From: Dimargaris cristalligena
Taxonomy: Eukaryota
Reading direction: 5' to 3'
Assembly (NCBI GenBank): GCA_003614675.1
Contig: ML002269.1
Location: 1-52,858 of the forward strand
Length of the DNA stretch: 52,858 bases
The notes beneath the pieces were generated by a model. The model saw only the letters and a list, made by a program, of their open reading frames with translations, had not been told where the DNA came from and did not search any database. A program made the translations under genes and the position numbers. Positions 18,205-52,858 of the stretch are shown piece by piece. Numbering within the stretch: the stretch's first letter is position 1; each line of letters begins with the position of its first letter.

Positions 18205-20583
18205 TTATTGGGTGGAGGAGGATTGGTATTGCCCGGTGGTGGGGTTAAGCAGGCCCAGGCTCGATGGACTCAGGAGCGGGATCTCGCTATAATTGCCCTT
18301 GAGTCCCAAATACGGTACCGCATACCGGATGGGTTGACCGTGGAGGCCCAGCTCACTGGATAGGGCCGTCACGAACCCACTGTAGACCCAGAATTGCGAG
18401 TCGCTGAGCCCCGTCGGTTGGGTAACGACGACGACGATTTTGGCCGTCTCTTTCGGTGCAATGGTGAGGGCCTTTCGGGTGAAGGTCAGCGTAGCGGCGG
18501 CGTTGGTCGCATTATTGTGAACCGGCCTAGGCAGGAAGACGCCCGCGCTATTGTACGCAGAGACACTGGGCACAACCCTGTGGCCCAGCTGCAGTGTAAT
18601 GGGCTGGGTAGCGGTATTGGTGAAATAAAGGTACATATTCCGACTATTATCATTGAATCGGCCCTTCACCGTATCATTTAGCCCGAAACTCGAGGTGTTG
18701 GTTCGGATCATGCCCGCCAGGGCATTATATATTAGAGCTTCCCCACCACCCTGTTGGGCTGCCGATCCCACCGGTAGGTTGTCAAAGATGCTACTTCCCG
18801 CCGGCGAACCGGTGAACCGCAGTCGATTGCGAATATCGGCCGCTTTGTGATTATGATTCGATTGCTCAATCAGGAGAGCGGCGGCACCGGCAATGTAAGG
18901 GCTGGATGAGGAAGTTCCCGATTTCGAGGTGTATGAGCCCATTTTGACCGGGTACGATGAGTACACCATGGAGCCCGCGCTAGCCAGATCCGGCTTGAGT
19001 TCCAGTTCGTTCCCAGGACCCCAAGAACTGGACATCGATACCCGGTGCGGGGTAGAGTAGGGTAATACCTGGGACTTCAGGTTGGACGTCATTTTCAAGG
19101 GAGTGGCTGAACCGGCCTTGAGCAGTTCAATTAAATATTTTCCGTCGGAAGCCGTTACAGCCACCACGGGTAAGTCAGCCGGGGAAGATAAAGACATGAA
19201 AACATCCAGTAGATCAAATATGTTAACACTAATCAACCCCACCGCCCCGGCTTTGAGTGCGTTGGTCGCTTGGACCGAAGTATCGCAAGGCCCCAAATTC
19301 AAAACAAGCACGGATCCATTATACCGGCGATTAAAAGGTTGACAGCCCCAATGGGTGCTACCTGTGGAATCAGTCCCCAATTCCAATGGCGTATCCGTAA
19401 ACACAAAGGGGCGCGTCGCCGTATGAGATGCGGTGCGTGGAATCCGCCGGGTCCGGTTGTTGCTCACGGTGATATACTCCGCGTGGTATTCTTCCGGGGT
19501 AATTGAAGCCACCGAAATAACGCCGAGTCCCGCAGCAGGACTGCTCAAGGCCCATAGATTATCATTCCCTAAATTTCCCGCGGCCGCCACCACCACGATA
19601 TTCTTGGCTACCAGGCGACTAGCCATGACCGCTTCAGCCGATTCCTGCCACATACCCGCGATGGAATACGATATGTTGATCACCTCCATACCGTCTTTGT
19701 ACGCCTGCTGTAAGGCCATGAGGATAATAGCCGAAGAAGATCGCCCTTGCGAAGCACAGGAGGAAATCTTGTAGACGCCCAAAGTGGCCTCGGGAGCTAC
19801 CCCCTGAAATACACCATCGTTTCCAGCTATAATGCCGGCGACGTGGGTTCCGTGACCGTTACAATCGTCGTGGGGCTTGCTGCCGGGTTGAATCAAGTAA
19901 TTTTCGGGGGTAAAGTTTGGACCGACGAGGTCCATGCCATAGGCCACTCGACAACCTGGAGTTTTGAAGCACTGGCCGAAGGCGGGGTGGTTAAAGTCCA
20001 GGCCCGAGTCAATTATACCGATTTTGACCCCCTTGTCCCGTAATTTAAGCTTGGCGTGCGCTTGATCGACCCCAACCTGTTGGTGATAGAGCAAAGGAAG
20101 GGGTGGGTTGGTGGGGAGGGGTGACGAGGGTAGCGAAGTGGATCCCGAAGTGAACTGCCGTTTCTTCAGCTCTTGGGAGGGTTCGGACGAGTCCGGCAAT
20201 TCCGAATTAGTGTACGGGTTAAAGTTCGACGGGCGGTAGTCCGCGGGATACAAATGAAGATTGGGCCATACCGAATCCACCATGGAGAATTCCGCCACTT
20301 CGTGAGCGGTCGCTTCGTTCATGGATAGAACGACGCCGTTGAACACAGTGAGATAGTCGGTCTGAATGGAATAGGCGGTCCCTAATTTCGCTATACTCTT
20401 GATAAAATCGACGGTCGATGTGGTTTCCTTCGTGAACTGCAAGATATACGAGTTGGTAATGATTTTGACCTGTCCCGAATTTAACAGGTCCGTCGGTGGA
20501 TTAATGAGTTGGGCGACCGTCAACTGGGGACTGACGGCGGCCCAAACTAAGGCCAGCAGAGTGAAGAGATGAGGGGCCCGCAT
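18205..20583 (-). CDS. Secreted S8 subtilisin-like serine protease A (signal peptide, I9 prodomain, catalytic domain with PA insert, Fn3-like domain); truncated by an in-frame TAA
   Basis: Signal peptide MRAPHLFTLLALVWAAVSPQLTVA; triad motifs IGIIDSG / HGTHVAG / SGTSSSSPY; oxyanion AAAGN; 'SSWGP..EL.LKPDL'; 'VYSGFV...YAVPYLG'. Confidence 0.92.
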   Translation of the reverse strand: MRAPHLFTLLALVWAAVSPQLTVAQLINPPTDLLNSGQVKIITNSYILQFTKETTSTVDFIKSIAKLGTAYSIQTDYLTVFNGVVLSMNEATAHEVAEFSMVDSVWPNLHLYPADYRPSNFNPYTNSELPDSSEPSQELKKRQFTSGSTSLPSSPLPTNPPLPLLYHQQVGVDQAHAKLKLRDKGVKIGIIDSGLDFNHPAFGQCFKTPGCRVAYGMDLVGPNFTPENYLIQPGSKPHDDCNGHGTHVAGIIAGNDGVFQGVAPEATLGVYKISSCASQGRSSSAIILMALQQAYKDGMEVINISYSIAGMWQESAEAVMASRLVAKNIVVVAAAGNLGNDNLWALSSPAAGLGVISVASITPEEYHAEYITVSNNRTRRIPRTASHTATRPFVFTDTPLELGTDSTGSTHWGCQPFNRRYNGSVLVLNLGPCDTSVQATNALKAGAVGLISVNIFDLLDVFMSLSSPADLPVVAVTASDGKYLIELLKAGSATPLKMTSNLKSQVLPYSTPHRVSMSSSWGPGNELELKPDLASAGSMVYSSYPVKMGSYTSKSGTSSSSPYIAGAAALLIEQSNHNHKAADIRNRLRFTGSPAGSSIFDNLPVGSAAQQGGGEALIYNALAGMIRTNTSSFGLNDTVKGRFNDNSRNMYLYFTNTATQPITLQLGHRVVPSVSAYNSAGVFLPRPVHNNATNAAATLTFTRKALTIAPKETAKIVVVVTQPTGLSDSQFWVYSGFVTALSSELGLHGQPIRYAVPYLGLKGNYSEIPLLSPSSLGLLNPTTGQYQSSSTQ

Positions 20584-20737
20584 GGCAACACAATGAGACA
20601 GGATACTGCGATGAAATGCCGATCAGAGGAACTTTCACTCCAGTTATACTAATAAAGTAGGTCGTTAAGAAATGCCATGAAAATAGTATTCAGTGGTCGT
20701 ATAGGTGATATGAGAGAATGCAGGTGGCCGCTATTCC

Positions 20738-23599: not shown

Positions 23600-26338
23600 T
23601 TAGGATTCAACCACGGGCCGGTTAATAGTGATCTTGGGCGTGGTCCAGATTTCCCAGTTATTAGAGTTAATCGACGGGTTACCGAAAGGCTTGAGGAAGT
23701 GTAATTTAAGATAGTAGCTGCCGTTGGGGATATCCTTGTACAGCGTTTGGGCGGACTGGAGATAGTAACGACCGTCCCAGGTGAAGTTAACGTAGGGGGT
23801 ACCCCCTTGGTCAATATTACGGGACAAGTACCACATGCTGCCGTAGTAGACCGTGGCGAAGATCCGGTTGGGGGATTCGGCCTTATAAATCTTGATTTGA
23901 ATGCGACGGGTGGGGTGTTCCATGCGGTAGCGGAAGCGGGGGTAATCCGTCCCGGTCAATGAATAGGTGTAGCCCGCGGTGGTAAACGGCATCAGTTGGC
24001 CAGTGGTAATATTCAGCATGGACGGGAGACCCAGAGCGGGAGCAGACAAAATCGGGATGGTACCCAAATCACCCTTGAAACCGAGGTAAGGCACTGAGTA
24101 TTTGATGAGCTGACCATTGAGGCCGACTTCATTGGACATGGCCGTCACATACCCGCTGTAAACCCAGAATTGGCTATCGTGCAGGGTCGACGGTTGCGTT
24201 ACGGTTACTCGGACCACGGCCGATTTCTGGGGGGACAATTCGAGGGTATTTTTCGAGAAGGACAGAGTGGCGGCCCCGGAATCATACGATGGAGTGGCCT
24301 GGAATATACCTGAGCTATTGTAGGCCGATGCGGCGGCAGCGGGGAGATGGTCCAGCATGAGGCGGATCTTCTTATTGCCGTTATTAGTAAAGGTCACGGG
24401 AATCGTGCGACTTCCGCGTTTGAAGTTGCCTTGAACGGTATCGTTGAGGGCCAGTGCAGCCACGTCAATACTGACGGAGGCCACGAAAGCGTTGTAGACC
24501 ATGACATCACCGGCACCTTGCTGGGCTACCGATCCGACCGGCATATTGTAGGACACACTGCCCCCGGCCGCGGAACCCATATTCATAAGTCGGCGCCGGA
24601 TTTCGGTCGCCTTTTGGCAGTGGCTGAGTTTCTCAATCAGGAGAGCGGCCACGCCGGCCAGGTAGGGGCTGGAAGAGGAAGTACCTGACATCATAGTGTA
24701 CGTTCCCATGGTGGTGGGGTACGACGAGTAGACCTGCGATCCCACGGCGGCCATATCTGGCTTCAGTTCAAGCTCATTACCTGGTCCCCAGGAACTGAAT
24801 ACGGAAATCCGGTGGGGCGTAGCGTACGGGAACGGTTTGAAATCGAGATTGGCGGTGATGGTCAGCGGGGCGGATGCGCTGGCCTTCTTGAGGATATCGA
24901 CGAGATACTGTCCGTCGACGGAAGTGACGAGCACGGAGGGAATGTTGATCAGGGTGCCAAAAGCCAGACCACCGTCCAGGTCGGCCACTTGATTAATGAC
25001 GATCATACCCACCGCCCCGGCCTGAAGGGCATAGAACCCCTTATTCGCCAGGGGACAGACCCCACGAGTCACCACCACCACGCTGCCGGCGTAGGATTTG
25101 CTGTACGGGTAACAGCCGGAGTTCAGGTCACCTGTGGGATCGACCGCCAGTTCCAAAGTCGCGCTCGTAAACTGGAACGGACGCACGTCGGACTGCGAGA
25201 GGGAGCGGGGGATCAACCGTGTGGCATTATTGCTCACGGCAAAGAATTGGGACTGGTACTGCTCGGGGGTGACCGAGGCCGCGGAAATCACGTTGGCGCC
25301 CGAAGCGGGACTACTGGCGGTCCATAAATTGTCGGTGCCCGAGTTACCGGCCGCGGCCACGACCACGACATTCTGCCGGACCAACCGACTGGCCATCACG
25401 GCCTCGGCCGATTCCTGCCAGAGGCCCACAATACCGTAGGACAAGTTGATGACGTCCATGCCGTCCTTGTAGGCCTGCTGCAAAGCCATAATAATGGCCT
25501 GGGAGGAGGTGGCGCCCTTGGCGAGGCAGGAGGTGATTTTGTAAATCCCCAGAGTCGCATCTGGAGCCACCCCCTGGAACACACCGTCGTTACCGCCCAA
25601 CACTCCGGCCACGTGGGTGCCGTGACCCAGACAGTCGTCGTGCGGGTCGTCGACGGGGGTTAAGACGTTAGTTTGGTAGGTGAAGTTGGGCCCGACAATA
25701 TCCATGCCGTAGGCTACGCGACAGCCCTTGGTTTTGTAACACTTGCCGAACGCCGGATGCTTCAGGTCCAGACCGGTGTCCAAGACCCCGATTTTCACCC
25801 CCTTGCCCCGGAGTTTGAGCTGGCTCTGGAGCTTATCAACCCCGGTTTGCTGGTGGGTAAGAATGGGCAGGGCGGGCTTGGTATAGTTCGCGTCCGGTAG
25901 AGTGGATTCTCCGTCCCGGCGGCTAAGACTGGGAGGGGCAGTACCCACAGGTAGGTCCAGGGGGTCCGTGGTGTCCTTGGGCTGATAGACCATGGGGTAC
26001 AGGAGGAGATTAGGCCACACGGACTCGACCATGGGCAAGTCCGCCACGGCGTAGGCGGTCGCTTCGTTCATACTCAAAACGGCCCCGTTGAAGAGGGGGA
26101 TATAGTTGGTCTGGTTGGTGTACGAACAGTCCAAGTCCTTTAGGTTGGCGTAAAACTGCCCGGTGGTGGTAGTGGTGGTACTTTCGCTAAATTGAACAAT
26201 GTAGGAGTTGGGAATGACTTCTACTTGACCGGGACTCAGAATTTCGTCTGGAGGAGTAACAACCTGACCCGCCATTGCTCCTAAATTGGCCGTGGCCAAT
26301 AATAGGGCCAAAGGCCGGAAAACGTATCTACCTAACAT
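23600..26338 (-). CDS. Secreted S8 subtilisin-like serine protease B, full length, 912 aa (tandem paralog of A)
   Basis: Signal peptide MLGRYVFRPLALLLATANLGAMA; motifs IGVLDTG / HGTHVAG / SGTSSSSPY; AAAGNSG; PA domain 'VVVTRGVC....KG..ALQAGAVGMIVIN'; Fn3-like and C-terminal beta domains; collinear with A. Confidence 0.95.
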   Translation of the reverse strand: MLGRYVFRPLALLLATANLGAMAGQVVTPPDEILSPGQVEVIPNSYIVQFSESTTTTTTGQFYANLKDLDCSYTNQTNYIPLFNGAVLSMNEATAYAVADLPMVESVWPNLLLYPMVYQPKDTTDPLDLPVGTAPPSLSRRDGESTLPDANYTKPALPILTHQQTGVDKLQSQLKLRGKGVKIGVLDTGLDLKHPAFGKCYKTKGCRVAYGMDIVGPNFTYQTNVLTPVDDPHDDCLGHGTHVAGVLGGNDGVFQGVAPDATLGIYKITSCLAKGATSSQAIIMALQQAYKDGMDVINLSYGIVGLWQESAEAVMASRLVRQNVVVVAAAGNSGTDNLWTASSPASGANVISAASVTPEQYQSQFFAVSNNATRLIPRSLSQSDVRPFQFTSATLELAVDPTGDLNSGCYPYSKSYAGSVVVVTRGVCPLANKGFYALQAGAVGMIVINQVADLDGGLAFGTLINIPSVLVTSVDGQYLVDILKKASASAPLTITANLDFKPFPYATPHRISVFSSWGPGNELELKPDMAAVGSQVYSSYPTTMGTYTMMSGTSSSSPYLAGVAALLIEKLSHCQKATEIRRRLMNMGSAAGGSVSYNMPVGSVAQQGAGDVMVYNAFVASVSIDVAALALNDTVQGNFKRGSRTIPVTFTNNGNKKIRLMLDHLPAAAASAYNSSGIFQATPSYDSGAATLSFSKNTLELSPQKSAVVRVTVTQPSTLHDSQFWVYSGYVTAMSNEVGLNGQLIKYSVPYLGFKGDLGTIPILSAPALGLPSMLNITTGQLMPFTTAGYTYSLTGTDYPRFRYRMEHPTRRIQIKIYKAESPNRIFATVYYGSMWYLSRNIDQGGTPYVNFTWDGRYYLQSAQTLYKDIPNGSYYLKLHFLKPFGNPSINSNNWEIWTTPKITINRPVVES

Positions 26339-26482
26339 GGTTACGCTGTATCGAAAAATGGATTAAACTATAAACCAACGGAAAATAGAAATTGTGGTTT
26401 GGTGATAAAAAATACTAAATAGCTGGCATTAAAGAATATCAGACTCGGGCTTCACTTCAATTCCACCGGTACGTTAAGTTGG

Positions 26483-29989: not shown

Positions 29990-32854
29990 TTAAGGCGCAT
30001 TCTCGCCCAGCCACTTGGCAATGACATCCTTATCGCGGGCCAACCAAGCCGAGTTCAGACGGATTTTCTCCAAGGTCTGATTCACGGCGCGGTTAATCTT
30101 GGAAATGTCCTTATCGCTGAAGAACTTTTCCACCTCCGCGGCCATGTCGGGGGTGGAGAAGGTCTGAGCCACCACCTTGGCGACGGTACCGAGGTACATC
30201 ATGCTAGCCTTGTACCGTTCGACGAAGAGGGACCAGTGCTGCTTCACAAAGGCCCAGGCCTGGTGACGGGCCACCGTGTTGCTACCTAGGCTGTTGAGGA
30301 GGATGTGCATGTCCTGGTTGCGCACCTTGTCCGAGATGGCGTAGTCCAGGACCTGGGTAATCAAAGCGGGTTCCCGCACTGCGCCAATGGCGCTCAGGGC
30401 CAGGTTCTTCTGGTCCACCACGGTCGCGGACTCGTAGAATTTCATCACGTGCTTGAGTTCGGCCGCGCCGCCGTGGCCAATGACGGTGTTGAAGACGGCG
30501 GTCCGCAGGTTGGGGGGTACGGCCGACTCGTTGTTTTGCTCAAAGAAGAGCTGGAACCGGCGCCGGGCTTCGGTCAGGACTTCGGCATCGTCCGCCAGGC
30601 CTAACCGCAAAATGACGAGGGAGCGCAGACGGGCCAGGTAGGGATCCTCCCCTTCGGGGTATTCCCAACCCAACCGCTGGTGCTGTTGACGGAACAGACG
30701 GCGAACGAAGGCCTTGAAGTGGTCCCGCACGGATTCGGGCTGCTGGTAGAGCAGGGAGCTGATTTCGGACAGACGAAGCGAGATTTCGCTCCAAATAACG
30801 AATTCGGGTTCGGCTTCGTAGGACTTAAGCAGGGTCAAAAAGTCGGTGGTGGGGCTGATACCGGGGGGGTTCAAGGAGGCGGCATCGGCCACGATACCTA
30901 ATCGGTCAATCGTGGTGAGGGCGCTGCGGTCCGCTTCCATCAAGCGACCCAGGGCCTCAATGGCGGACAGGGGGTAGTGTACCCGGTAGACACCGGTCTG
31001 CTGGTAGTTGAGGATATAGTAGGAGGCTGAGGCGGGGATGGAGAAGGTGCCCTGCTTCTGGGTCAAGATGTCGTGGGACGGGGTTTTGGGTTGCTCCGAG
31101 TGCACGACACTGAGGGGGACCCACCATTCGACCTGGTCATCCTCGGGCTTGACATCGCCGGTCGACAGGAAGCGGGACTGGGTCACTTTGATCTGGCGGG
31201 TAGCGGCGGTACCAGTAGCCGGGGCCGGTTCCTCATTAACGGACACCACGGGATAGCCCACGTGGCGGGTCCACAGCTCCATGAAGTGGCTGACTTCCTG
31301 GCCCGAGGTCTCGGACAGGGCCTGCCACAGATCACGGGTGCTGGCGTTCTTGTACATGTGTTTCTTCAGGTAAGCGCGCACTCCCGCCAGGAACACGTCT
31401 TCGCCGAGGTAGGAGCTCAGCATCCGGATGACGCTCGCTCCCTTGGAGTAGCTGATGGCGTCGAAGATTTGGGAAATTTCGGAGGCGCGACGCACGTCCA
31501 CTTCGATGGGGTGGGAACTGCGCATGGCATCCAGGCTGAGGCCACGCTGGAACTCTTCCATAACGAAACTGGTCCAGACGTTCCATTCGGGGAACAGCTT
31601 ATCGACGGCGTAGTTGCCCACCCAGGTGGCGAACCCTTCATTCAGCCACAGGTCGCTCCACCACTCCATGGTACACAGATTGCCGAACCACTGGTGGGAG
31701 TTCTCGTGGGCAATCACGTAGGCCACGTACTGCTTGGCCTGAGTGGTACTGCTCTTCTCGTCGAAGAGGAGGGCGGAGGTCCGGTAGGTGACCAAACCCC
31801 AGTTTTCCATAGCGCCGGCCTCAAAATCGGGAATGGCTACCAGGTCTAACTTGGGGAGGGGGTAGGGGATATCGAAGGTATCGGCCAGCACGTCCAAGGT
31901 CCGGGCGGCCACATCCAGGGCGAAGCGGCCCTGTTCCTTGAGGCCCTTGAGGGTGTAGACGCGGCACTTGATGGGGGATTCATTGGGTCGTTCGGCAGTG
32001 TGGGTCTCGATGTATTCGAGATCGCCCACGACAAAGGCCAGGAGGTAGGTGGACATGATGGGGGTAGTGGCGAATTTGACCTGCTTGTAAGAGCGAGCAA
32101 GGTCCTCCAGGGGGGTCTCCGAGACCACGTTCATATTGGAGAGAGCGGTCAAATCGGCGGGCACGTTCAGGGTCACGTCGAAGGTAGCCTTGAGGGACGG
32201 TTCGTCCCAGCAGGGGAAGGCCCGGCGGGCGTCGGTAGGCTCAAACTGAGTCACGGCCAGGTTGCGCTTCTCACCCTTATCGTTGGTGTAACTGCTGCGG
32301 TAGAAGCCGGCCATCAGGTCGTTCAGAACTCCGGTGAAGTGCAGGACGAGGGTGATGGTGGAGTTGGCGGGCAGGCCCTGGGCGAAGGCGATGGAGGCGG
32401 ACTGGGTGTCGGCCTGGTAGGCGATGGAGTTGGAGGCCAATTTCTGTTCGGTTTTGGCGACATCCTGCAGAATGTAGGCGGCGGTGATCTTCAGGTCCTC
32501 GGCGTTCAGGGTGATGGTGCTGGTAGCTTCCAGTACCTCCAGCTTGACGGCCACGGTACCGTCGAACACCAGCTTGTCCAGATCGGGGGTGAGCTGCAGG
32601 TCATAGTGGATGGGACGGACGTTGGTGGGCAGCACCTCGCGGTCGAGAGCGGGCATACTGGTAATTGTGGTAGTAGAGAACGGGGGAAAGAACAAGTCAC
32701 GGAGGTTCGCCGGGATAGGCGGCGGAGTGGGGAGGTCAACGAAGTAAAGGAGGGCGCTGAAGAGGAGCAGGAAAGCGGCGGAAAGGAGAAAGCGCGGGGT
32801 AAAGGCAGGCAAGGTCGCGGGCTCCTTGCGGGGTTTATAAGGCGGGGCAGCCAT
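29990..32854 (-). CDS. APE2: M1-family zinc alanyl aminopeptidase (Ape2/puromycin-sensitive type) with N-terminal hydrophobic extension
   Basis: 'TQFEPTDARRAFPCWDEP', GAMENWGL, HEXXH-(18)-E as 'HENSHQWFGNL...LWLNEGFA', 'FDAISYSKG', ERAP1-like C domain. First ATG 32854 (CACCATGG); second in-frame ATG 32656 (MPALDREVLP). Confidence 0.95.
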   Translation of the reverse strand: MAAPPYKPRKEPATLPAFTPRFLLSAAFLLLFSALLYFVDLPTPPPIPANLRDLFFPPFSTTTITSMPALDREVLPTNVRPIHYDLQLTPDLDKLVFDGTVAVKLEVLEATSTITLNAEDLKITAAYILQDVAKTEQKLASNSIAYQADTQSASIAFAQGLPANSTITLVLHFTGVLNDLMAGFYRSSYTNDKGEKRNLAVTQFEPTDARRAFPCWDEPSLKATFDVTLNVPADLTALSNMNVVSETPLEDLARSYKQVKFATTPIMSTYLLAFVVGDLEYIETHTAERPNESPIKCRVYTLKGLKEQGRFALDVAARTLDVLADTFDIPYPLPKLDLVAIPDFEAGAMENWGLVTYRTSALLFDEKSSTTQAKQYVAYVIAHENSHQWFGNLCTMEWWSDLWLNEGFATWVGNYAVDKLFPEWNVWTSFVMEEFQRGLSLDAMRSSHPIEVDVRRASEISQIFDAISYSKGASVIRMLSSYLGEDVFLAGVRAYLKKHMYKNASTRDLWQALSETSGQEVSHFMELWTRHVGYPVVSVNEEPAPATGTAATRQIKVTQSRFLSTGDVKPEDDQVEWWVPLSVVHSEQPKTPSHDILTQKQGTFSIPASASYYILNYQQTGVYRVHYPLSAIEALGRLMEADRSALTTIDRLGIVADAASLNPPGISPTTDFLTLLKSYEAEPEFVIWSEISLRLSEISSLLYQQPESVRDHFKAFVRRLFRQQHQRLGWEYPEGEDPYLARLRSLVILRLGLADDAEVLTEARRRFQLFFEQNNESAVPPNLRTAVFNTVIGHGGAAELKHVMKFYESATVVDQKNLALSAIGAVREPALITQVLDYAISDKVRNQDMHILLNSLGSNTVARHQAWAFVKQHWSLFVERYKASMMYLGTVAKVVAQTFSTPDMAAEVEKFFSDKDISKINRAVNQTLEKIRLNSAWLARDKDVIAKWLGENAP

Positions 32855-34209
32855 GGTGGTGTGGGAGGAAAGAGGGAAAAGTGAAAAGAACAAGACAGGT
32901 GTTGCCTGGTTCAGGGGACGTGGGGCTGTGGCCTAAATAGTGACGGTGGGGCTATTTTTAACCTATACCGATACTTGGGCTTCTTTACGCGGCCGAAACA
33001 TCCCACAGCCTAACGAATAATGGAAGGGGTTGGCTACGGAACCTGGAAGAAGGGAGGTGGCATAGCGTTCCTTGGCCGGTTGTTTACGCTTGATGGGGCC
33101 ACCCGACCACGTTGTATTGATACAGAGAATGCCGACCAGGTTCCATTGATCGAACACTCTCTTTAGCGCCGCCGGGGAGGTCTGCTAATTAATAAGGAAT
33201 TGCTAGCAGCGGTGGCTAATCCGCGTGGTATAGTAGTAGTTATTATTCCCAATTCCTACCTAGTCAACCACCGGCTAATTAATTAAATGAGCCAGCTGGC
33301 TCCCAATTACTACGACAAGGGAGCGCAGCTGATGGGCCTAACCAACCAAGTCATCGGATAAGCCAATAAGCACCGTATCGTACCAGAAGGACGCGCCGAT
33401 CCTGTGGAAGGGAGCTATCGCTAACCCTGGTGGAGATTTCTGGACGGAGGGGAATCCGACTTCCGTAAATCGATCTCCACCTTTATTAGTTGAAACCACC
33501 GCTAATGGACCCCACCACACCACACGTCACAAACTCCGATTCCATAGAGTGGCGGGACTACCCTGTCACCTTGGCGGTCAATACCCATTAAAAGGAGTAA
33601 TATCCCCCCTCCCACCACCATGTGCAGAACCCGGTGTGCTGCACCCCCGCGACACGGTGGTTTTAAGCGGCTATTTAGCAAAGGGCTTCTTTTTGACATC
33701 AGTGGAGCCCCTCGTATGCTTCCCCAAGGGGAAGTGGGCAACGTTGACCCATAAACACCTTTTCCTAGCCCAGGTTATTTGACCCGTTCGTGGAATGAAG
33801 TTGAGTGGGTGCCTAATTTAGTTACACAACTTGGGAATGGTTCCAAGGGCACGCAGCCTGTAAGACAGTGGCCGCGGTATTTAAACCAAGTGATAGCAGT
33901 GTCTAATCGAAATAGGTGCGACATTTCCCCCTAATGAACACTTTACCCGAAAAAATACAATTAGACCTAAATATACACCCCCGTCCGGTTAGTTGCTACA
34001 GGTAATTGTCGATGGTCCGTTAGCACTTCCGGCCATTAGGCCCAAGCGGCCTCGACGCACCAGCCTCACTCCCAGCAATATATAAGCCAGTTGGACATGT
34101 GTCACCACAGGCTGACCACAGCAGCCTCGATGTGCCTTATTTGACGTGCGCCTTAGTGTGCTCATAAACCAGCGAAAATAAATACATTTCAGCACAACAG
34201 GACAGGACT

Positions 34210-34232
34210 TATATATATATATATATATATAT
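34210..34232. repeat. (TA)n microsatellite / TATA-like element upstream of the secreted F-box-like gene
   Basis: About 11 TA units, ~190 bp upstream of ATG 34422. Confidence 0.8.
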
Positions 34233-34421
34233 GAAGACAAGACGCTCCCATTTCTCGTTTAGTACCCCCCCTTCCCCTACCGCTACGTCGTCATACCTAC
34301 CCATACCCCTACCACTAATACCACCAAATGGACATTCGAGCACCATTTTAACTATAGACTTATCCGTTGTATAATCACGTTTTATTGGCAGTAGCAGGAG
34401 GCCCAGCAATTGACCTATACC

Positions 34422-35871
34422 ATGAAGTGCTGGACACCCACGACCGCCCACGGGTTGGCCAGTGCCGCCGTTTTGTTGGCAATGGCCACCAGCCTTGTCT
34501 ATTCAGCCGCACTTCCCAATGAGCTTCTGTTTAGCATTCTGGCAAAGGCCAGTTCGTTTGCAGAACAGTTCGGCCATGCTCAAGTGTGCTCCCTATGGAA
34601 ACAAGACATCATCAACACCCGTATCGACCGACACCAAAAGGTAAATGACAACCTAATCCTCCCCCTACACTGCCCTATTTGAATGCCCGGTTAATCAATA
34701 ACTATGGGCCAAGCGGCTATCCCAACAAACCGTAGGACTATCGAAGCAAAAGGCTATCTATACTAATTTAACAATTGTATATTTTATGTACCATATCATT
34801 GGGATGCTGCCTCCCACTCCACCCACCGGAATTCCTTCACCGCAGGCCATTAAAGCCCTCGAGGCCCTCCAAGACAAGCCTCTACATGGTCTGAAGGACG
34901 CCGAGGCAGACCAAATTCTAGAGGATACCTACTCCCTTTTTGAAGGGCTAATAGAACCCACGTTTATCAAATACATTCACGACCGATTGGCCGACTATTC
35001 CAAGGATAAACAGGGCCAGTCCCGGCCACCACACCATTCTCCGTTGGCCGATGCCTTGACCCACCAACACCCCGATATCCGAGCGGGGTGGGCCGTGTTT
35101 CAGCCCGAGCTCGCCCGCATCCACGCCGGGGCCCGTACCGTGACCTTGGATTCGCTGGATAGCAGCGACCCAAACATGGCCCAAGCCTTTTTCCCCTTAC
35201 AGTATCTGACCCGCCCCGACCACACGAACCATCTGCAAGCCTTAATCCATTATAGCCGCAGTCTAGCCTTTCAGCAGGCCCTGTACCGCCGGCTTAAAAT
35301 TTCTCCTCAGTTAATCCCACTCAGCTACCCCCCTTTTGCCGAACTACTCACTGCCTTACCTTTGGTTCAGATTGGGTGGATCACCGCACCCATTCGCCCC
35401 ACGGCCTCCCAACAGGTGGAGCTCGCGCTCAAGGATTACTACGGGGACGCCCTGCTTTATACCACGCTACTACCGCTGGCCCGCACGGGCGGTTGGGCCG
35501 ACTGGGTTCGCCACCAGGAAATGTTCATTGGTTTGCCCTCCCTAATGCACCCGACAGCCCGGTACGCATTGACCGTGGCGGCGCTCTACCGGAATGAATC
35601 CCTGGTGCGGGACTTGGGAACTCGACTGAAGGAGAACCATCCCTACGTGCTGGCCCAAACTATTGCGTGCATGGACCACCGGGGATGGCGGAAAGCCGCC
35701 TACTCCCTGCGTGTTCTTAAACCGGACCTATCACCCGCTGACCCACAACGCTGCTCGGATGGGTTCTTTAATCGGGGGGCGATTGACCTCGACCACAATG
35801 GCCAATTAGTGTACCGGTTTTATATATCCAATTCTGAGGTAGTTGCTTACGACCTTCCCAGTGATTGGTGA
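34422..35871 (+). CDS. Putative secreted protein with N-terminal F-box-like motif, ~414 aa, 2 exons: 34422-34640, 34846-35871
   Basis: Exon 1 encodes a signal-peptide-like MKCWTPTTAHGLASAAVLLAMATSLVYSA followed by ALPNELLFSILAKASSFAEQFGHAQVCSLWKQ. Phase-0 donor AAG|GTAAAT, branch TACTAAT at ~34761, and the first downstream AG (CAG| at 34845) is in frame with the 361-aa ORF. Confidence 0.75.
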
Positions 35872-37721
35872 TACTGGTCCGCTAATAAATAGTGCTCTCC
35901 CCCCCACTCCCCTATATCCCCCCCCTTGACCCATTTTTTTATAGAGAGAGTTGAGAAGCGAAAAGGCAGCGAATGGGATAATCGAAAAGAATATATGAAC
36001 AGGCCTAGAGTCCTGTGGTACTAGGGGAATGTCTCTGTATCACCACTGAGTTCACTTTTCAGTCACAGCCCATGGTGCCGCCGTATTGGCTTAATTGGGT
36101 GGAAAAGAGGATCATTTGATACCTAGGACATCGGCTATCTAATTGAAACAACCCGATTTTTGTAGTATACATAAATAATATTAATAAAAAATGGCGTAAG
36201 TTGGCGAAGGAGAGAGAGCTAAATCAAGTGGGGCAATTCAATAATACAGAGAGGACTAGTGTCCACCCCCCCTCCCTCACTCCATCGTATTCTTTTAACC
36301 TGTAAAACAACATGTTTACAGCCCCTAAACGAAATGGCTATAGGTGGTGGTAGGACATATACACCGGGTTGGATTTTGGTTAGTGGCTCTCCAATGGAAT
36401 CGGTAAAAATTAGAAGAGAGGGGACATCTGTCAAACGGTCGCTATTTACATTTTGGCCTTAGTCATTGACGCTGATTAAGCGGATATGTCGTTGTTAGCA
36501 GTTGAGTAGTTTTGGGGGGAATCGTTTATCCGGCACCTTCCCCATCGCTGCCACCCAACTGATTTTCGGAAGACCCGGCAACCCGCTTCAGTATAGTATA
36601 GCAGAGGTTAATGTTAACATATATTATAACCAGTGGACCGCCAGGCTGTTCTGTACTAGAGTAATTTGGTGTTTTTCTTTTAAAAAAATAGGTGTATCAT
36701 TCATAAGGAATGATTCAAAAAAAAAACAATAGAATGTCCCCATTTAGATGAGCTCGTCAAACCACACTCGCCCTCGGCGATAGGTCCGATAAGTAGATAC
36801 AATGGCGGCCTTAGTGACTCCTTCTAACAAGTAAGTCAGTTGCTCTCCTGATCGTTTCTCTTGGTGATGCCATTAAAAGTTCAACTCTTTATTAAAAAAA
36901 AGTCGCGACACCCCCAAAATATGTATTAATCAGTTGGACAAGGAATCCACTTATTCGCCGAGATACACCGACTTCTTATACAACCAATGTCCGGACCGCG
37001 TCTATTGTGGGATAGGTGAAATAGTTCACCGCTCCAATTGGAATGCTGGTAAAAACTACGCCCTTACATAAGGTGATTCGGTGTGCATCCGTTTGCGTTG
37101 CCTAGTTAGAGTCCCCACCACTTCTACACGATGGCCGTTTACGATGTTAAATAATATGGGCGAAGTCCAACCAGGCAGTACCACGCAAAATCCATTAATA
37201 GAGACAAGTATACATAGGCCTATAACGGGGGGAAAAGTCGGATTTAACCTGTAAACCCGATTACATCAAACAGATCGTATATGTTATGCAGCTGGATGAT
37301 TACAACTCCCCCAATATATCGCCGACTAAATCCAGGGACGTCCCTAATGATTTTTGGAATTACTTGTCATTTACTAGACGGAAAATGGGAAACGGTCCTT
37401 TGAAAGGTGATGCTGAAGGGGAAAAAGTTTTTAAAAATTAGGCGATTGTTCGGATTCTCCTCTCAAGTACGATGTCCCAATAAACGTATGGCACCTCAGG
37501 GTCGCTCGAAAATCATTTAGCTAAATAGTCTGACACACACACCTTCTCAACTGGGAATAGGCGGGTGGGTGGGTATACCCCCATGTATGAAGCGGCGTGC
37601 TACAGACCACTCTAAAAAAATGGACCAGGGTAAATAGGGACCGAGATTTGTATTTCTGATTAATGGGAAGGTGAATGAGAACAAAATAGAGGGAACCGCG
37701 ATGATGATGACAAGAGCATTA

Positions 37722-37826: not shown

Positions 37827-40800
37827 TTAAATCATACCAGGGGGGGTCTGGTTGCCAGCACGGTGCTGGTGCGGGGGGTCAGCATACCCACTCAGCATCG
37901 GCTCTTCACTCGATTTTTTGCCTAATTTGTCCGATGACCGCGAAGCCTCGCTGCTCGAATACTCGCCCTGGTGGCTGGGCATTTGCCGGATCGGGCTACT
38001 CTGGTACAGACTGCTTCCCAATCCACCGCCGATGCCAATCCCACTGCCGCCGACGTTGAGGTTCAAAGTCGACGCGTGGGCGCTAGGCGCCGCCGAGAAT
38101 CGGTTTAAGATATGCGGCGTCATATAACCCAGCTTGTCGAAACTGGCACTGGAATCACCACCACCCAACGCGGCACCTGCAAATCCGGGTAGGGCACTCG
38201 AGCCGGCCGGACTGGCCTGCACGGGAACTCCTTCGGGCAGAGCGGGCATTTCGGGGTAGGGGCTTCCGGAGGCACCCGTCAAGTTGGCCATGCTACTCGA
38301 CTGGTTGGCCAAAAACATGGTGGTCCGTCGCCGTTTCTCCGCTTCAAATTCGCACCAGCGTTTGATGACAATCTTCGAGCTGTCGAATTCGCCTTCCTTA
38401 TCACCGTGACCGGCTTCCTTGCCTTCACCTTCAACCATACGGGTTTGACCCCAGGAGAAATCGTCGAAATGCCAGAACGCGTAGGCGGGCAGCACGAAAT
38501 TCCACACGGGTAGGGATAGCAGGTAGATTAACATCCAGCCGACATAGACCATTTTACGACTGGTCAGTGTAATCAGCACGGCCGGTAGACCCAGAATCAT
38601 GGCCAGTAACATCAGAGGCAGCCAGGGCACGGGGCGGGTAAAGGTCGAGATAATGATCAGGTACAGGGTGAAGGTAATGGCAGCCGGCAGCACGACGGTA
38701 CCCACCAGTTCCATGAAGATGACGAACTGCATAGAGAAGAAGAAGGTACCGCACAAGTCGCGCACAAGCACCAGTTCCATGAGATTGTGCACCGTCGAGT
38801 TAATCCAGCGACGACGCTGCGACAGAAGCACCTTGAACTCGTCGGGCACAATAGTCTTGCACACCGCACCGGGTACAAACACCATCTTACGCTTAGGGAA
38901 GGTACGCAACATAAGGGTAGACAAGTAACGATCCTCACCCAGGAGCAGTAGATTCTTCTTGTGCAAGGTGTCCACCACGTTCTCGGAGTAGTTTTCAACG
39001 ATATCCGGGTTGGCCAGGATGGGGACCCAGTATCCGTGGGCACCCTTGGGGGCCTTGATACGGTACATGCAGAAACAACCGGGCAAACACGTCACACCAC
39101 CGAACACGGACTCGAAGGCCTTGCTCTGGTGATGGGAGATGTAGTATTCGAATACCTGAATCATGGACACCCAGCTATCCGACTTGTTGGCGATCTTGGT
39201 TTCACCGCACAGGCCCATGACCTGGGGGTCCCGCACCATGGTAGCCACCATTTGACCAATGGCGTCTGGGAACACCTTGGTATCGGCGTCCACCATGAGT
39301 ACGATTTCGAAGTTGTCCGGAGTGACCCCCGTCACATTCCACATGGCGTTAAACAGTTCGTACTCCAGCTCCGTCATGCGCTCGTCGAACATAACGTGCT
39401 GCAGGAAACTCATCAGGATAATCTGGGAATCGCGCTTACCACGATTACCGGGCTTCCGCTCGTTGGCCTCGGCGGGGGAACCGCACTTGACCACCAGCAC
39501 CATGGGCACACGGTGGCGCTTGGCTTCCTCGGGGGAGTTCTCATCAGGGGAATAGTAGCCGGCGTAGATCTTGGCCATATTGTGGCGCTTGGTACCGTCG
39601 GCGATGGCGAGGTAGGAGTAGGGCTGCACATTATCAGGGTGAATGACATAGTCCTTCATCATGGACAAACACACGTCAGGAGTCGAGACACTCTCACCCG
39701 CACCGGTAATGATACCGTCACAGATGATGAACAGGCACTTGTGGGAAGTAGGGAAGTAGGTACCGGCCAAGGAGTCCAGAGTGGTTCGGATACCGTGACC
39801 GCCTTCGGAGTAGCAAGTGACCAGCAGGATAGTGTACGCCAGGTCCTCGGCACTGGGCATCTCGCCGGTCAGCCCGTCGGGGTTGCGGGGCTGGAGGGAC
39901 TTGTCAGAGCGGTATTCCGTACCGGGGCTACCGCCCATGGCCATTTGGCGTCCAGCAATATCCTCTTGGCTGTGGGCGGCCATTTCACCGGACATGGACG
40001 GAACGGGGCCACCATTGGGGTTGCGACGCTGGCGGGCCATGGTCTCGGAGGATTCGACGGCGCCCAGAGAATGGCTGGACGAGTTGGCGGTGGTGGAAAT
40101 AAAGGCCGACTGGCGGGTAGCGCCTTCGTTACCGTAGACGGAGGGGTAGACAACCTTGGACCGGCCAGGCTCCTCACCGGGCATATAGGTACTGAAGCGG
40201 CTAGTCTTGGGGAAGAAGCGGGACTTCTTGGGGGCAGCGGTCACGGTGTACTGGGGGCGAATGGCGAGGGGTTGGCCGTAGTGGTTGTTAACATCACTCC
40301 ATTGCTCAATGGCCTCGATACGACGGTGGCGCTCCTCGGGGGTCTCCTTCTTAAGCCGGCCCAGACGGGGGCCCATGCCCCAACCGAAAACAACGGCCAA
40401 GCCGAACTTGATGAACACCACGCCCAAAATGACGATCAGGGACACGTACAGGACAATCTCGGAGGCGATACAACCAATGGTGTTGGTATCCAAAGCACCC
40501 ACACGGAACATTTCCTGGAGACAGCGGCCAATCTTCATGTTGCTGTTACCAACGTAGAAGCTCACGTCCCGACCCCGGTATTTGGGGTCAGCCAGTTCGT
40601 TGAAAATGGGAATGGGGGTAATGCCGTTGACTAACCACTTGAGGCGACCCATATCCAGCACACTCCCACTGTAGATGATGAACTGGCGGTCCTTAAACGG
40701 ACCTTCGAGGGCCTCAAAGTCGAAGTACTGGTCACCGCGGGCCGGCAGCTTGCGCAGCACATCGCGGGAGGCGGTGGTCAAGTGACAGGCGGCGTTCTCG

Positions 40801-42191
40801 GCGTTCATTTCGGGGTTCGGTGTGACGGTACCATTGTTGATGACACAAGGGAACAGGTTGAGGACGTTGTTCTGGGCATCAGCGGGACTGGGGACGTTGA
40901 ACAAACCCTTGCAGTTACCGTTGGGGGTCTGGAACATAAATGAGAGGTCCATACCACTGGCGTAGGAAGGATCGCGGAGCAGATTGCCGGGTTCCTGGTC
41001 ATCACCGGTCAGGGAGGAGGCGGGATGGACATACTTGGACACATCATAGACGCGCCCGTTGACGATCACGTTGTTCATTCCTATTTGATCGTACTTGATG
41101 TAGTTTTGGTTCTGAGTGCTGAGACCGCACACGACCTGCTGGAAACCGAAGGTCAAGAAGCCGACGGCGCCCATCATCAACATAATAATGGTAACCAGGG
41201 CCATTTTCTCGCGCCAAGCCTGTTGAATATCGGGCTGGGGCATACCACAACAGCGCAAAATCGATGGCGGGGCGTAGAAGGTGACGACCCAGGAGAAGAA
41301 GACCCAGAACGACGGGCACTGGCGCTTGGGCTCCTCTTTCGCGGGGCGCTCTTTGACGGTACTGCGCCGAGCCAGACTCCGACCGCGACGCATATTGCTT
41401 TCCTTATTCGCGGCAGTGCGGCGGTTGCGGGTCTCGGAGGCCGGGCCAGCGGGGGTAGTCACGACATTGCCGCGCAGGGAGCTGTGGTAGTGAGGGTCGT
41501 TCTTGTCCAAAGGCCGGGCGCGCTCGGGGCGGATGAGGGATCGCTGGCGACGGAGGGCCTGGGCGGAGCCCTCTTCGGCCTGCCGGGCACTGGCCTTGCT
41601 ACGGGAAGACAGTTTGCGAACTAGACGGGAGCCGACACTATCGAAGGATTTCTTGGGGCGGGCCTCGGGGCTATACTGGGGCGGGGACAGGGCACTTTCC
41701 TTGGGGGGCAACCGGGGTGGGGGGTAGCCAGCCAAGGGGATCTCGTGCATCTCCATCCCGTCCTCGGGTTGGATGGCGCGGGGAATGGGCGGTAAGCCGG
41801 TGGGAGAGATGGAGCGGTAGTAGGAAGTGGGGGTGGAGTCGGAGAATTCTTCGCCGGGCTGGGCCTGATTGGCTCCCCGCAGATTGTCAAAGTAGGAAGA
41901 GGGGCGGTCGCCGTGGTCAAAGGCGCCATCGGCGGGCGGGCTACCGGAGGTGGCGGTTAGGTAGTGCAGGTGGGGACTTCCGCTATCAACGGGGGCCAGC
42001 CCTTCCAGGGCCTGGGCATTTAAACTGTTGAACTGGTACTTGCGGGGATCTAGGTCGGAGTCGTCGGAAAGGTAGCCCTCGGGGTCCCGACGAGGCTCGG
42101 GAGCCAAGGGGGAGTAGACCTGTTGCCGGGGGTCGGAAGGACCACTGTGGTTATTACTATTATTGTTATGGAGTGGTGGAGGGTTCGCCAT
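37827..42191 (-). CDS. CHS3: Class IV (division 2) chitin synthase, 1454 aa, intronless
   Basis: 'LRRQRSLIRPER', 'QQAWREK', cytochrome-b5-like region 'VNGRVYDV', 'LVTCYSEG', 'KPGNRGKRDSQ', 'VDADT', 'TLHKKNLLLLGEDRYL', 'QRRRWINST', 'WHFDDFSWG.TR'. No myosin motor domain. Confidence 0.96.
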   Translation of the reverse strand: MANPPPLHNNNSNNHSGPSDPRQQVYSPLAPEPRRDPEGYLSDDSDLDPRKYQFNSLNAQALEGLAPVDSGSPHLHYLTATSGSPPADGAFDHGDRPSSYFDNLRGANQAQPGEEFSDSTPTSYYRSISPTGLPPIPRAIQPEDGMEMHEIPLAGYPPPRLPPKESALSPPQYSPEARPKKSFDSVGSRLVRKLSSRSKASARQAEEGSAQALRRQRSLIRPERARPLDKNDPHYHSSLRGNVVTTPAGPASETRNRRTAANKESNMRRGRSLARRSTVKERPAKEEPKRQCPSFWVFFSWVVTFYAPPSILRCCGMPQPDIQQAWREKMALVTIIMLMMGAVGFLTFGFQQVVCGLSTQNQNYIKYDQIGMNNVIVNGRVYDVSKYVHPASSLTGDDQEPGNLLRDPSYASGMDLSFMFQTPNGNCKGLFNVPSPADAQNNVLNLFPCVINNGTVTPNPEMNAENAACHLTTASRDVLRKLPARGDQYFDFEALEGPFKDRQFIIYSGSVLDMGRLKWLVNGITPIPIFNELADPKYRGRDVSFYVGNSNMKIGRCLQEMFRVGALDTNTIGCIASEIVLYVSLIVILGVVFIKFGLAVVFGWGMGPRLGRLKKETPEERHRRIEAIEQWSDVNNHYGQPLAIRPQYTVTAAPKKSRFFPKTSRFSTYMPGEEPGRSKVVYPSVYGNEGATRQSAFISTTANSSSHSLGAVESSETMARQRRNPNGGPVPSMSGEMAAHSQEDIAGRQMAMGGSPGTEYRSDKSLQPRNPDGLTGEMPSAEDLAYTILLVTCYSEGGHGIRTTLDSLAGTYFPTSHKCLFIICDGIITGAGESVSTPDVCLSMMKDYVIHPDNVQPYSYLAIADGTKRHNMAKIYAGYYSPDENSPEEAKRHRVPMVLVVKCGSPAEANERKPGNRGKRDSQIILMSFLQHVMFDERMTELEYELFNAMWNVTGVTPDNFEIVLMVDADTKVFPDAIGQMVATMVRDPQVMGLCGETKIANKSDSWVSMIQVFEYYISHHQSKAFESVFGGVTCLPGCFCMYRIKAPKGAHGYWVPILANPDIVENYSENVVDTLHKKNLLLLGEDRYLSTLMLRTFPKRKMVFVPGAVCKTIVPDEFKVLLSQRRRWINSTVHNLMELVLVRDLCGTFFFSMQFVIFMELVGTVVLPAAITFTLYLIIISTFTRPVPWLPLMLLAMILGLPAVLITLTSRKMVYVGWMLIYLLSLPVWNFVLPAYAFWHFDDFSWGQTRMVEGEGKEAGHGDKEGEFDSSKIVIKRWCEFEAEKRRRTTMFLANQSSSMANLTGASGSPYPEMPALPEGVPVQASPAGSSALPGFAGAALGGGDSSASFDKLGYMTPHILNRFSAAPSAHASTLNLNVGGSGIGIGGGLGSSLYQSSPIRQMPSHQGEYSSSEASRSSDKLGKKSSEEPMLSGYADPPHQHRAGNQTPPGMI

Positions 42192-43756
42192 GTTGGGAGG
42201 GAGAGAAAAATAGAGGTTTTACACGCTGGGCAGAATAAGGGGAGGGGTGGAGTAAGCGCTGTCCAAGAGAGAAGTAGAGGTTGGGAACCAAATAAATAGG
42301 GGGCAGGGGAGAAAAAAGAAAATAGAGTGCGAACGAAGCGAATTACACGGACAGGGAGGAGGGAGAGGAGGAGTGGCTAAAGAGAACAACACACTCACAT
42401 ATACACACCCACCAGGAGGAGAGCTGTACACACACACACAAGTTGAGACGTGGAGGGACAACAATAGGCCGAGCGAGATGAGGGAAATAGAGCGACGCTA
42501 TACTGGTAACGACGGCCGAATAGTAGCAACGGACACTCCGTTCGTTCGGCACTCAGCGACTGTTCGGGGCAAGAAGGCGGGCCAATGGAGAAAGGAAATG
42601 CAGTAACGGAAAAGAATAGCAAAGTTAGTCAAGAGAGACAAGAAAGGACATTAGTTGAAGAAAGCAGGGCGGAGTACAAGAGGGGCAGCCGGTGTGGAGA
42701 GAGGCATATATTCAAGAACAGCATACAAGAAGGTATCCAGGAACGTAGGTGGTTGTACACGGCTCCAGCAATATGGAAAGAGAGAGAGAGAAGAGAACAG
42801 AAAACCCACTTGTGCTTTTCAGGCTGGCGCCATTCTCCTATTAATATAAGGTGCAGCTCTGCCTGGCATTTTCTCTCCATCAGCCAGGCCAGGCCTTTAT
42901 TTCCTTCCTGCCTTCTTCCCTGGACAATCACCCATACTACCACTATAATAATAATAAGCGCAAGCACAGGGGGGGGCTATAATGAAAGACGCTGGTGGGT
43001 GGGTGGGCCCAGGCCGGGGCTGAGGCAGCATGGGCCCCCGAGCCTGGGTGGCATCCGCCCGACCATTGGACCAGGTCTTCGCCCGATCTCGCCGGCCATT
43101 GGTGTCCTATTTTCGGCCGGCCGACTCCGCCAATCCTACCCTCGGATAATTATATACAGCTAAAACTGTGGTGCTATTATATTCCTCGTCCTAGTTTTTT
43201 TCCGCTACCTTCCATTGTTCCAGGCTGGGACGGGGGGAGAATCGAGCGAGGGAAGCAGAGCAAGGAGGCAGAGCGGTCCGAGCCCGAAATAGCTCCGTTT
43301 ATCAAAGGCAGGAAGGCCTTTATTAATAGTTGCGTTGACTATGGTACGTCCTTCCTTTCTCTGTTATACATCACTAACTAGCTAAGATGGTGTGGTCCCC
43401 ATCCTGCCTGGAGACTACTTGACGATTGTCTCAGGTCACCGATACTCCCCTTCCTTTCCCGTAGAACAATACCCCCCCCCTCCCCGATCTTGTTTGGCCC
43501 TAGACTCGTACCCCCCCCCTCCCTCAGCACAGTACCGAATCACCTAAACCGCCGCTTTGCATAGCGCCGTGTCTTACTTTATCTCTCTGACTCGGAGTTC
43601 CGAAGAACCCCGACCATGCCGACGTATAGATGTAGATGTGGACTAGCCCCCCACTGCACCTATGCGGCCTCCCACGCATAAAGCCCATCGCCAGCTCATC
43701 CCGTACATATTCCTTCTTATCCGGCGACAGGGTCTTCCTTGGGCCTCCTCCCAACT

Positions 43757-52587: not shown

Positions 52588-52858
52588 CTAGTCATCCAGT
52601 TCCGAAGTGTTGAATCCAACCACGGGGAACTGGCGCGAAAAGTCCACTACCCGGGATTGGAGGTCACGCAGCTGGGGCACCACCGACACCCCGTCGCCGA
52701 GCTGATCCTTGAAGTCGCGGATTTTCTTACCGGCTACTTGGGCCTTGAAGTCCTTGGTGATAGTGACGGCTTCGTTAATGAACTCCACGACTTGGGCGAA
52801 GTCCCGTTCGACCAAACCGCGCGAGGTCATGGCTGGCGTCCCCACCCGGAGGCCACCG
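52588..52858 (-). CDS. SHMT: Serine hydroxymethyltransferase, C-terminal fragment (gene continues beyond window)
   Basis: 'GGLRVGTPAMTSRGLVERDFAQVVEFI...KKIRDFK...LQSRVVDFSRQFPVVGF' is the typical eukaryotic SHMT C-terminus. Confidence 0.93.
   Translation of the reverse strand, partial: GGLRVGTPAMTSRGLVERDFAQVVEFINEAVTITKDFKAQVAGKKIRDFKDQLGDGVSVVPQLRDLQSRVVDFSRQFPVVGFNTSELDD

Follow-up and report, generated by a model that had tools for sequence, protein, structure and literature searches.

The 52,858-nucleotide stretch of contig ML002269.1 of the fungus Dimargaris cristalligena that we analysed (NCBI GenBank assembly GCA_003614675.1, forward strand, positions 1 to 52,858; hereafter the window) carries, at 34422-35871 on the forward strand, a two-exon gene for a 414-residue protein in which a signal-peptide-like leader runs directly into an F-box-like segment. 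Our favoured, if tentative, hypothesis is that this protein belongs to a candidate family of secreted F-box effectors that would dock on the SCF (Skp1–cullin–F-box) ubiquitin ligase of a host. An exported F-box protein best fits the combination of a leader, the orientation that the leader's charges imply, apparent selection on the F-box in two members, and membership in a one-species, fast-diverging, partly tandem family of a haustorial biotroph. D. cristalligena was sequenced as a biotrophic mycoparasite, according to passages of its genome paper (PMC6784888), and passages of PMC9866270 describe the Dimargaritales as parasites of Mucoromycota and some Ascomycota that act via an appressorium and a biotrophic haustorium. 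The original prediction, made from the letters of the sequence, had supposed a parasitic, haustorial mycoparasitic fungus, and the identity of the organism bears this out.

The gene model carries the argument and is well anchored. Exon 1 (34422-34640, forward strand, 73 codons) encodes residues 1-73 of the protein RKP39470.1, namely the hydrophobic leader (34422-34511, residues 1-30), which is signal-peptide-like by hydropathy and the −3/−1 rule, and the F-box-like three-helix segment (34512-34640, residues 31-73), which reads from LPNELL through VCSLW to RIDRHQK. The intron (34641-34845, forward strand, 205 nt) opens with GTAAAT at 34641, closes with CAG at 34843-34845 and contains TACTAAT at 34761-34767, which resembles a branch-site consensus; upon intron retention the frame would stop at 34680-34682. 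Exon 2 (34846-35871, forward strand) contributes 341 codons (34846-35868) for a helical linker and an orphan all-alpha domain, followed by the TGA stop codon at 35869-35871. The ATG at 34422, which has an A at −3, is the first of its frame; a TAG stop codon in that frame lies 30 nt ahead of it.

It had been predicted that splicing joins two separate open reading frames (ORFs) into one protein of about 414 residues, and this is what the annotations contain. The spliced product agrees letter for letter with RKP39470.1 ('hypothetical protein BJ085DRAFT_37521 [Dimargaris cristalligena]'), and a second D. cristalligena assembly holds the same 414-residue model, H4R33_000926, identical at 413 of 414 positions. 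The sole change, R352W, is also the only difference in the protein between the assemblies: codon 352 (given as window positions 35475-35477) encodes R in the window and W in the second assembly. Searched alone by word index, exon 2 returned a single entry among 4403 candidates, the 414-residue D. cristalligena protein itself (100% identical). Furthermore, the three paralogs described below align without gaps over the exon junction, with R67 and I68 of exon 1 and L78 of exon 2 invariant. Since two independent annotations agree and the paralog alignment crosses the junction gap-free, the splice model is sound and, judged by these comparisons, the two-exon structure is correct. In the flanks of the gene, an AATAAA at 35884-35889 (forward strand), 13 nt past the stop codon, is a possible polyadenylation signal, a role that we assign by position and sequence only. 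A (TA)11 microsatellite occupies 34212-34233, approximately 190 nt ahead of the ATG, and might be a TATA-like promoter element or a polymorphic site.

A loose regular expression for F-boxes, run over the six frames of the window, matches only the F-box-like motif LPNELLFSILAKASSFAEQFGHAQVCSLW (34512-34598). The motif presents L31, P32, E34, V55, C56 and W59 at positions conserved among F-boxes, and the same pattern recurs in the paralog P0005; the defining positions of the motif (L-P-x-E, hydrophobic positions in helices 1 and 2, and a W in helix 3) agree with the range of the Pfam alignment. The F-box starts about 0-3 residues past the likely cleavage site in this protein and approximately 6 residues past it in P0005. 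PF12937 (F-box-like) matches residues 30-61, which correspond to profile positions 3-33 of 47, with an E value of 0.0011 (19.2 bits) for exon 1 alone and 0.0036 (17.5 bits) for the whole protein; the curated cutoff of this family is 24.3 bits, and the gathering score of the second F-box family, PF00646, is 20.5 bits. Besides PF12937, the Pfam scan of the whole protein returned nothing. The predicted resemblance to PF00646 or PF12937 is therefore borne out in part: the motif is in place and PF12937 recognises it at E 0.0011-0.0036, but below the 24.3-bit cutoff, and PF00646 does not match this protein in the Pfam scan.

It is the paralog P0005 that narrows this gap. P0005 passes PF00646 with 23.9 bits against the required 20.5 (residues 31-71, profile positions 2-41 of 43), as does P0007, another gene model of the same paralog, with 20.7 against 20.5 bits, and the UniRef name of P0007, a model from JGI (Joint Genome Institute), is 'F-box domain-containing protein'. 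In the family alignment the PF00646 stretch of P0005 lies exactly opposite residues 31-71 of our protein. The membership of the protein in the F-box group, for which its own score does not suffice, thus rests on its homology to a paralog that passes the threshold. The F-box is also the best conserved stretch between our protein (P0003 in the alignment) and P0005, with 16 of 43 residues identical, as compared with 5/27, 13/52, 9/33, 19/61, 9/73 and 22/101 in the other regions; hence the F-box appears to be under selection in these two lineages.

Structure prediction is compatible with this assignment without adding much discrimination. When AlphaFold2 (AF2) is run on the whole protein, residues 1-43 have a predicted local distance difference test score (pLDDT) below 50. 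When it is run on residues 29-73 together with the corresponding paralog stretches, it yields helices at 33-42, 46-52 and 57-72 with a mean pLDDT of 70.1, and the three modelled helices follow the layout expected of an F-box. Searched with Foldseek, this 45-residue model gave 0 matches at E ≤ 0.001. In a wide VIA-align search, which is not discriminating, generic three-helix matches dominate with Z scores of 3.4-4.6 (best 4.6). The F-box of FBXO42 (chain residues 48-92) appears in register at rank 26 (Z 3.6, root-mean-square deviation 2.9, 45 residues aligned, 29% identity); its identity is the highest among the 50 rows listed, but its Z of 3.6 is tied with those of unrelated three-helix bundles.

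The second element of the argument is the leader. From residue 11 to residue 32 the protein has a run of 22 residues without charge (mean Kyte-Doolittle hydropathy 1.61), and for window lengths of 9, 15 and 19 residues its hydropathy maximum falls within this run. The n-region, MKCWTPTTAHG, supplies a positive residue ahead of the run (K2); the h-region (residues 12-26, mean hydropathy 2.15), with its many Ala, Ser and Thr residues, is of moderate hydrophobicity only. The hydrophobic signal peptide that had been predicted is retained as far as this stretch is concerned, and is leader-like by the same heuristics in all four members of the family, but its proposed cleavage site is not: cleavage at VYSA|A would put Y at −3, and the −3/−1 rule permits cleavage after S28 or A30, where the residues are small.

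Uncharged hydrophobic runs open all four genes (22 residues in this protein, 14 in P0005, 16 in P0004 and 29 in P0006), three of them thus 14-22 residues long and only that of P0006 of membrane-span length. The leaders of the paralogs are identical to that of this protein at merely 2/25 to 6/30 positions. Being alike in property and hardly in sequence, the leaders show the usual pattern for a conserved targeting property, and by heuristics the N-terminus is signal-peptide-like in all four members. Moreover, a positive residue stands ahead of the run in each of the four proteins (K2, K5, R2 and R2), and over the approximately 15 residues past it the charge is never net positive: this protein has one E and one K there, and the three paralogs have acidic residues only. 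Under the well-established positive-inside rule this charge pattern favours an N-terminus-in orientation, i.e. a signal peptide or a type II anchor, which would leave the bulk of the protein on the lumenal or outer face.

Beyond the N-terminus there is no second membrane-like segment: in the five sequences scanned (the four genes and the alternative model P0007) the best 19-residue window reaches a hydropathy of 1.21-1.34, and none of the five C-termini ends in KDEL or HDEL. A mitochondrial presequence was set aside, as only one K and one H precede the run and there is no amphipathic basic pattern; a glycosylphosphatidylinositol anchor was set aside because the C-terminus is not hydrophobic.

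The third element is the distribution of the family. When 1.84 billion representative proteins were searched exhaustively with phmmer at E ≤ 0.001, the query and only three relatives were returned, all from D. cristalligena (KAJ1978451.1, KAJ1985642.1 and KAJ1985643.1 being the accessions of the three paralogs) and 26-29% identical to the query: P0004 (409 residues, E 1.5e-16, 26% identity), P0005 (452 residues, E 3.7e-10, 29%) and P0006 (428 residues, E 1.4e-06, 27%). Side by side on a single 37.6-kb contig, P0004 and P0006 (genes H4R33_003870 and H4R33_003871) share 35% identity; both are without the F-box motif, and they have the appearance of a tandem duplication. Whether the family or P0004 plus P0006 served as the profile, word-index searches found D. 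cristalligena proteins only; since each search scored just the 8000 candidates sharing most words and known paralogs were missed, they add little to the exhaustive search. The window itself contains neither a paralog nor a Skp1 gene. From these searches, the family is one of four genes, so far of one species only, fast-diverging and partly tandem.

The F-box is unevenly spread within this family. It is recognisable in two of the four genes, and in the six-row alignment PF12937 matches three rows and PF00646 two; the W persists in P0004, and neither the LP nor the W is left in P0006. Most family-wide invariant positions sit in the C-terminal domain. Because two of the four paralogous genes are without a detectable F-box, SCF hijacking cannot be the function of the family as a whole. 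The SCF-hijacking effector class of the original prediction accordingly has to be narrowed: the F-box homology and the leader in four members stand, the extension of the function to every member does not.

The remainder of the protein consists, in the AF2 model, of a helical linker (residues 74-125, pLDDT 70-86) and a C-terminal part of approximately 290 residues that is all-alpha at low to moderate confidence, the mean pLDDT of the whole model being 55.5. No Pfam family was found for this part in scans of exon 2 and of the whole protein, and a family-profile sequence search of the PDB (Protein Data Bank) gave no relative at E ≤ 10. The helical orphan C-terminus that had been anticipated is thus what we see, with no Pfam family, an all-alpha model and relatives confined to the same species. 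Ankyrin-repeat clusters of the ESM Atlas scored 0.82-0.90 with 109-147 shared features, which is below reliable levels and serves as a lead only, and Pfam detects no ankyrin repeat at E ≤ 10 in this protein or in the family alignment. Sequence and model together suggest an orphan all-alpha domain without a known family or fold.

If the protein is indeed exported, the following course of events can be proposed. The leader would take the protein into the endoplasmic reticulum (ER) and be removed around residues 28-30, so that the mature protein would begin with the F-box; the protein would be exported from the parasite, plausibly at the haustorium; on reaching the cytoplasm of the fungal host, the F-box would dock on the highly conserved Skp1 of the host, and the C-terminal domain would then present a protein of the host to the SCF ligase, to be ubiquitinated. 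Leader cleavage, secretion, entry into the host, binding to Skp1 and the identity of the target are all parts of this scheme that we only infer. With a fungus on either side and a highly conserved Skp1, it would need no mimicry, only the re-routing of an existing adaptor.

A stand-in partner for complex prediction came from natural Skp1 genes of metagenome contigs, located with a short Skp1 motif; 80 of 114 loci were listed. Among the loci listed there are 48 complete Skp1-type ORFs of 140-200 residues, and the 24 of these that were aligned are 45-86% identical to the first, which Pfam confirms as Skp1 (PF01466 with 106 bits, PF03931 with 84 bits). For residues 29-125 with this metagenomic stand-in, the predicted complex scored 0.23 and 0.14 against a mark of 0.34, in a run without controls, which counts neither for nor against docking.

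Several observations weigh against an exported F-box effector. The PF12937 score of the protein lies under the Pfam cutoff (17.5-19.2 versus 24.3 bits), yet above what chance would give. PDB sequence searches return no F-box chain: the family profile has 0 matches at E ≤ 10, exon 1 has 0 matches, and P0005 has a single irrelevant one, FliT, at E 0.81. With the whole model, the best Foldseek match has an E value of 0.5 and all matches are generic alpha-solenoids, and the best VIA-align match reaches Z 7.0 over 66 residues (301-372), which is within noise for helical models. P0004 and P0006, two of the four genes, have no Pfam F-box match at E ≤ 10, and the exhaustive phmmer search found no orthologs in other parasites. 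With 414 residues, 3 cysteines after the leader and one N-x-S/T sequon (N323), the protein is unlike the classic small cysteine-rich secreted type. The leader is assigned by hydropathy and −3/−1 heuristics only, and the 29-residue run of P0006 resembles a membrane anchor more than a cleaved leader. Finally, P0007 starts 43 residues further upstream than P0005, which would make the leader of P0005 internal; another hydrophobic stretch lies within the extra 43 residues, and P0007 also ends differently, with a shorter C-terminus. By comparison of the two, either P0005 or P0007 is wrong, which matters for the signal-peptide argument, and their disagreement means that the N-termini of the family are not beyond doubt.

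A rival reading is that the family is helical and secreted or lumenal, and that its F-box is no more than a relic in decay: an ancestral cytosolic F-box protein would have gained a leader, and the exported protein would now act by way of its C-terminal domain, either extracellularly or within the secretory pathway, with no role in SCF. The two paralogous genes that lost the motif kept both the leader and the C-terminal domain, the F-box of this protein is sub-threshold, and the C-terminal domain is where the family-wide invariant positions concentrate. Against this, the F-box is the best conserved stretch (16/43) between motif-bearing paralogs whose other regions are 12-31% identical, and L, P, E and W kept at their expected places are hard to explain without a function. 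We regard such a relic as unlikely, though it deserves to be kept in view.

The hydrophobic run could alternatively be an uncleaved anchor of an endogenous SCF adaptor, held in the ER or the mitochondrial outer membrane with the F-box facing the parasite's cytosol and binding the parasite's own Skp1. Membrane-associated F-box proteins exist, among them an FBXW7 isoform, yeast Mdm30 and Mfb1, and human FBXL4, and the F-box normally works in the cytosol. The runs of this protein (22 residues) and P0006 (29 residues) are long enough to span a membrane, but those of P0005 and P0004 comprise only 14 and 16 residues, and a cytosolic C-terminal part needs a charge pattern opposite to that seen in all four paralogs. 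Taken together, this makes a membrane-bound adaptor distinctly unlikely.

There would be no need for membranes at all if this were an ordinary cytosolic, lineage-specific F-box protein, its hydrophobic start not a targeting signal or its true start elsewhere. Passages of PMC5238444 indicate that lineage-specific F-box expansions are common in zygomycetes, with 31 orphan F-box genes in Choanephora as an example. The h-region is Ala/Ser/Thr-rich and its hydrophobicity moderate, and one paralog has two differing annotated N-termini. Against this, all four paralogs, deeply diverged as they are, begin with a hydrophobic stretch, and for this gene ATG 34422 is the first in frame, a stop lies 30 nt upstream and two annotations agree on the start; we judge a cytosolic protein improbable. 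Mere chance, whereby N-terminal helices happen to carry LPxE...W, could call on the score under the Pfam cutoff, the lack of an F-box chain in PDB sequence searches and the generic three-helix matches (Z 3.4-4.6) of the 45-residue model, but is very improbable given that two different Pfam F-box models match two approximately 30%-identical paralogs at the same aligned place, one of them above threshold, and that the FBXO42 F-box lies in register at 29% identity, the highest among the 50 rows listed (albeit with a Z of 3.6 shared by unrelated rows).

The neighbours of the gene in the window are ordinary fungal genes, including those for APC8/Cdc23, an RSN1-type channel, a Na/Ca exchanger, a kinase and a pseudouridine synthase. 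Two genes on the reverse strand (18205-20622 and 23600-26362) encode S8 subtilases with protease-associated (PA) and fibronectin type III (Fn3)-like domains (PF00082, PF02225 and PF06280), and both subtilases begin with signal-peptide-like leaders of the same general design as that of our protein. These three domains are those of the Zoopagomycota subtilase architecture figure in the genome paper, passages of which describe an expansion specific to D. cristalligena (PMC6784888). Directly upstream of the F-box gene lies an M1 aminopeptidase with an ERAP1-like C-terminal domain (29990-32932, reverse strand), whose N-terminus, a basic segment followed by a hydrophobic stretch, suggests a type II anchor. 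Downstream and on the opposite strand, a long single ORF (37827-42218, reverse strand) encodes a class IV-like chitin synthase (PF03142 with 911 bits, plus a CHS4-like domain). Towards the ends of the window are a MIX23 fragment (1513-1917, reverse strand, E 3.4e-07) and the C-terminal end of a serine hydroxymethyltransferase (52591-52857, reverse strand, E 1.4e-05), the latter cut by the window end.

To our knowledge, almost nothing is known of how biotrophic mycoparasites of early-diverging fungi control their hosts, and F-box effectors are established for bacteria and one insect family. In passages of the D. cristalligena genome paper, no gene common to all mycoparasites emerged as a signal of this lifestyle (PMC6784888). 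A keyword search of the open-access literature, supplements not covered, found no secreted or effector F-box protein in fungi, so that an earlier report is possible. The passages concerned of PMC8146833 call the link between fungal F-box genes and pathogenicity unclear, those of PMC3914424 describe an L-P-x-E motif in Fusarium proteins without a secretion signal, and in those of PMC5238444 and PMC4469406 F-box genes are mentioned as family counts only; in the main text of PMC9391592, which deals with zygomycete secretomes, neither 'F-box' nor 'Dimargaris' occurs.

Should the family be exported and bind host Skp1, it would follow that a eukaryotic parasite can weaponise its own SCF adaptor by merely adding a leader; the Dimargaris-host interaction would gain its first molecular handle, and a new substrate-binding domain would be defined. 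If export does not take place, what is left would be a lineage-specific F-box protein of the ordinary kind whose N-terminus is odd. The further claim, that this would be the first exported F-box effector of a fungus and the first fungus-on-fungus effector hijacking a ubiquitin ligase, is one that we consider somewhat doubtful and advance from sequence comparison with due reserve. Were it right, the mycoparasite would have put a Sec leader on an F-box protein of its own, which would plug into the near-identical Skp1 of the host; the new all-alpha domain would select the victim protein, and the F-box-less sister paralogs would act otherwise.

The closest designs from other systems share parts of this architecture. 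Ordinary cytosolic F-box proteins of fungi have the same L-P-x-E, hydrophobic core, W in helix 3 and predicted three-helix layout, and also the combination of an N-terminal F-box with a variable C-terminal domain, but they lack the secretory leader. Agrobacterium VirF is an F-box effector of bacterial origin. It is joined by Legionella AnkB and LegU1, F-box effectors that recruit the host SCF, and by RipG7 of the Ralstonia RipG/GALA group, named as a bacterial F-box effector in passages of PMC4617103. The principle is the same in these bacterial effectors (AnkB, LegU1, RipG/GALA and VirF), i.e. an F-box and a protein-binding domain are delivered to recruit host Skp1/SCF, but unlike the D. cristalligena protein they are injected by type III or IV systems, have no Sec-type leader and use ankyrin or leucine-rich-repeat domains.

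Closest of all comes the SSGP-71 family of the Hessian fly (Mayetiola destructor), a group of effectors of a eukaryotic parasite in which an N-terminal F-box precedes the domain that binds the target. SSGP-71 effectors carry a signal peptide. They differ from the proteins described here in having leucine-rich repeats and many members and in serving an insect on a plant, as compared with an orphan all-alpha domain, four members and a fungus on a fungus, the latter known here from sequence alone. According to passages of PMC4617103, SSGP-71 proteins, with their N-terminal F-box and subsequent leucine-rich repeats, interact with host Skp proteins, and one of two characterised members is without an F-box. 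In this, too, the two systems are alike, as two of the four D. cristalligena genes have no F-box.

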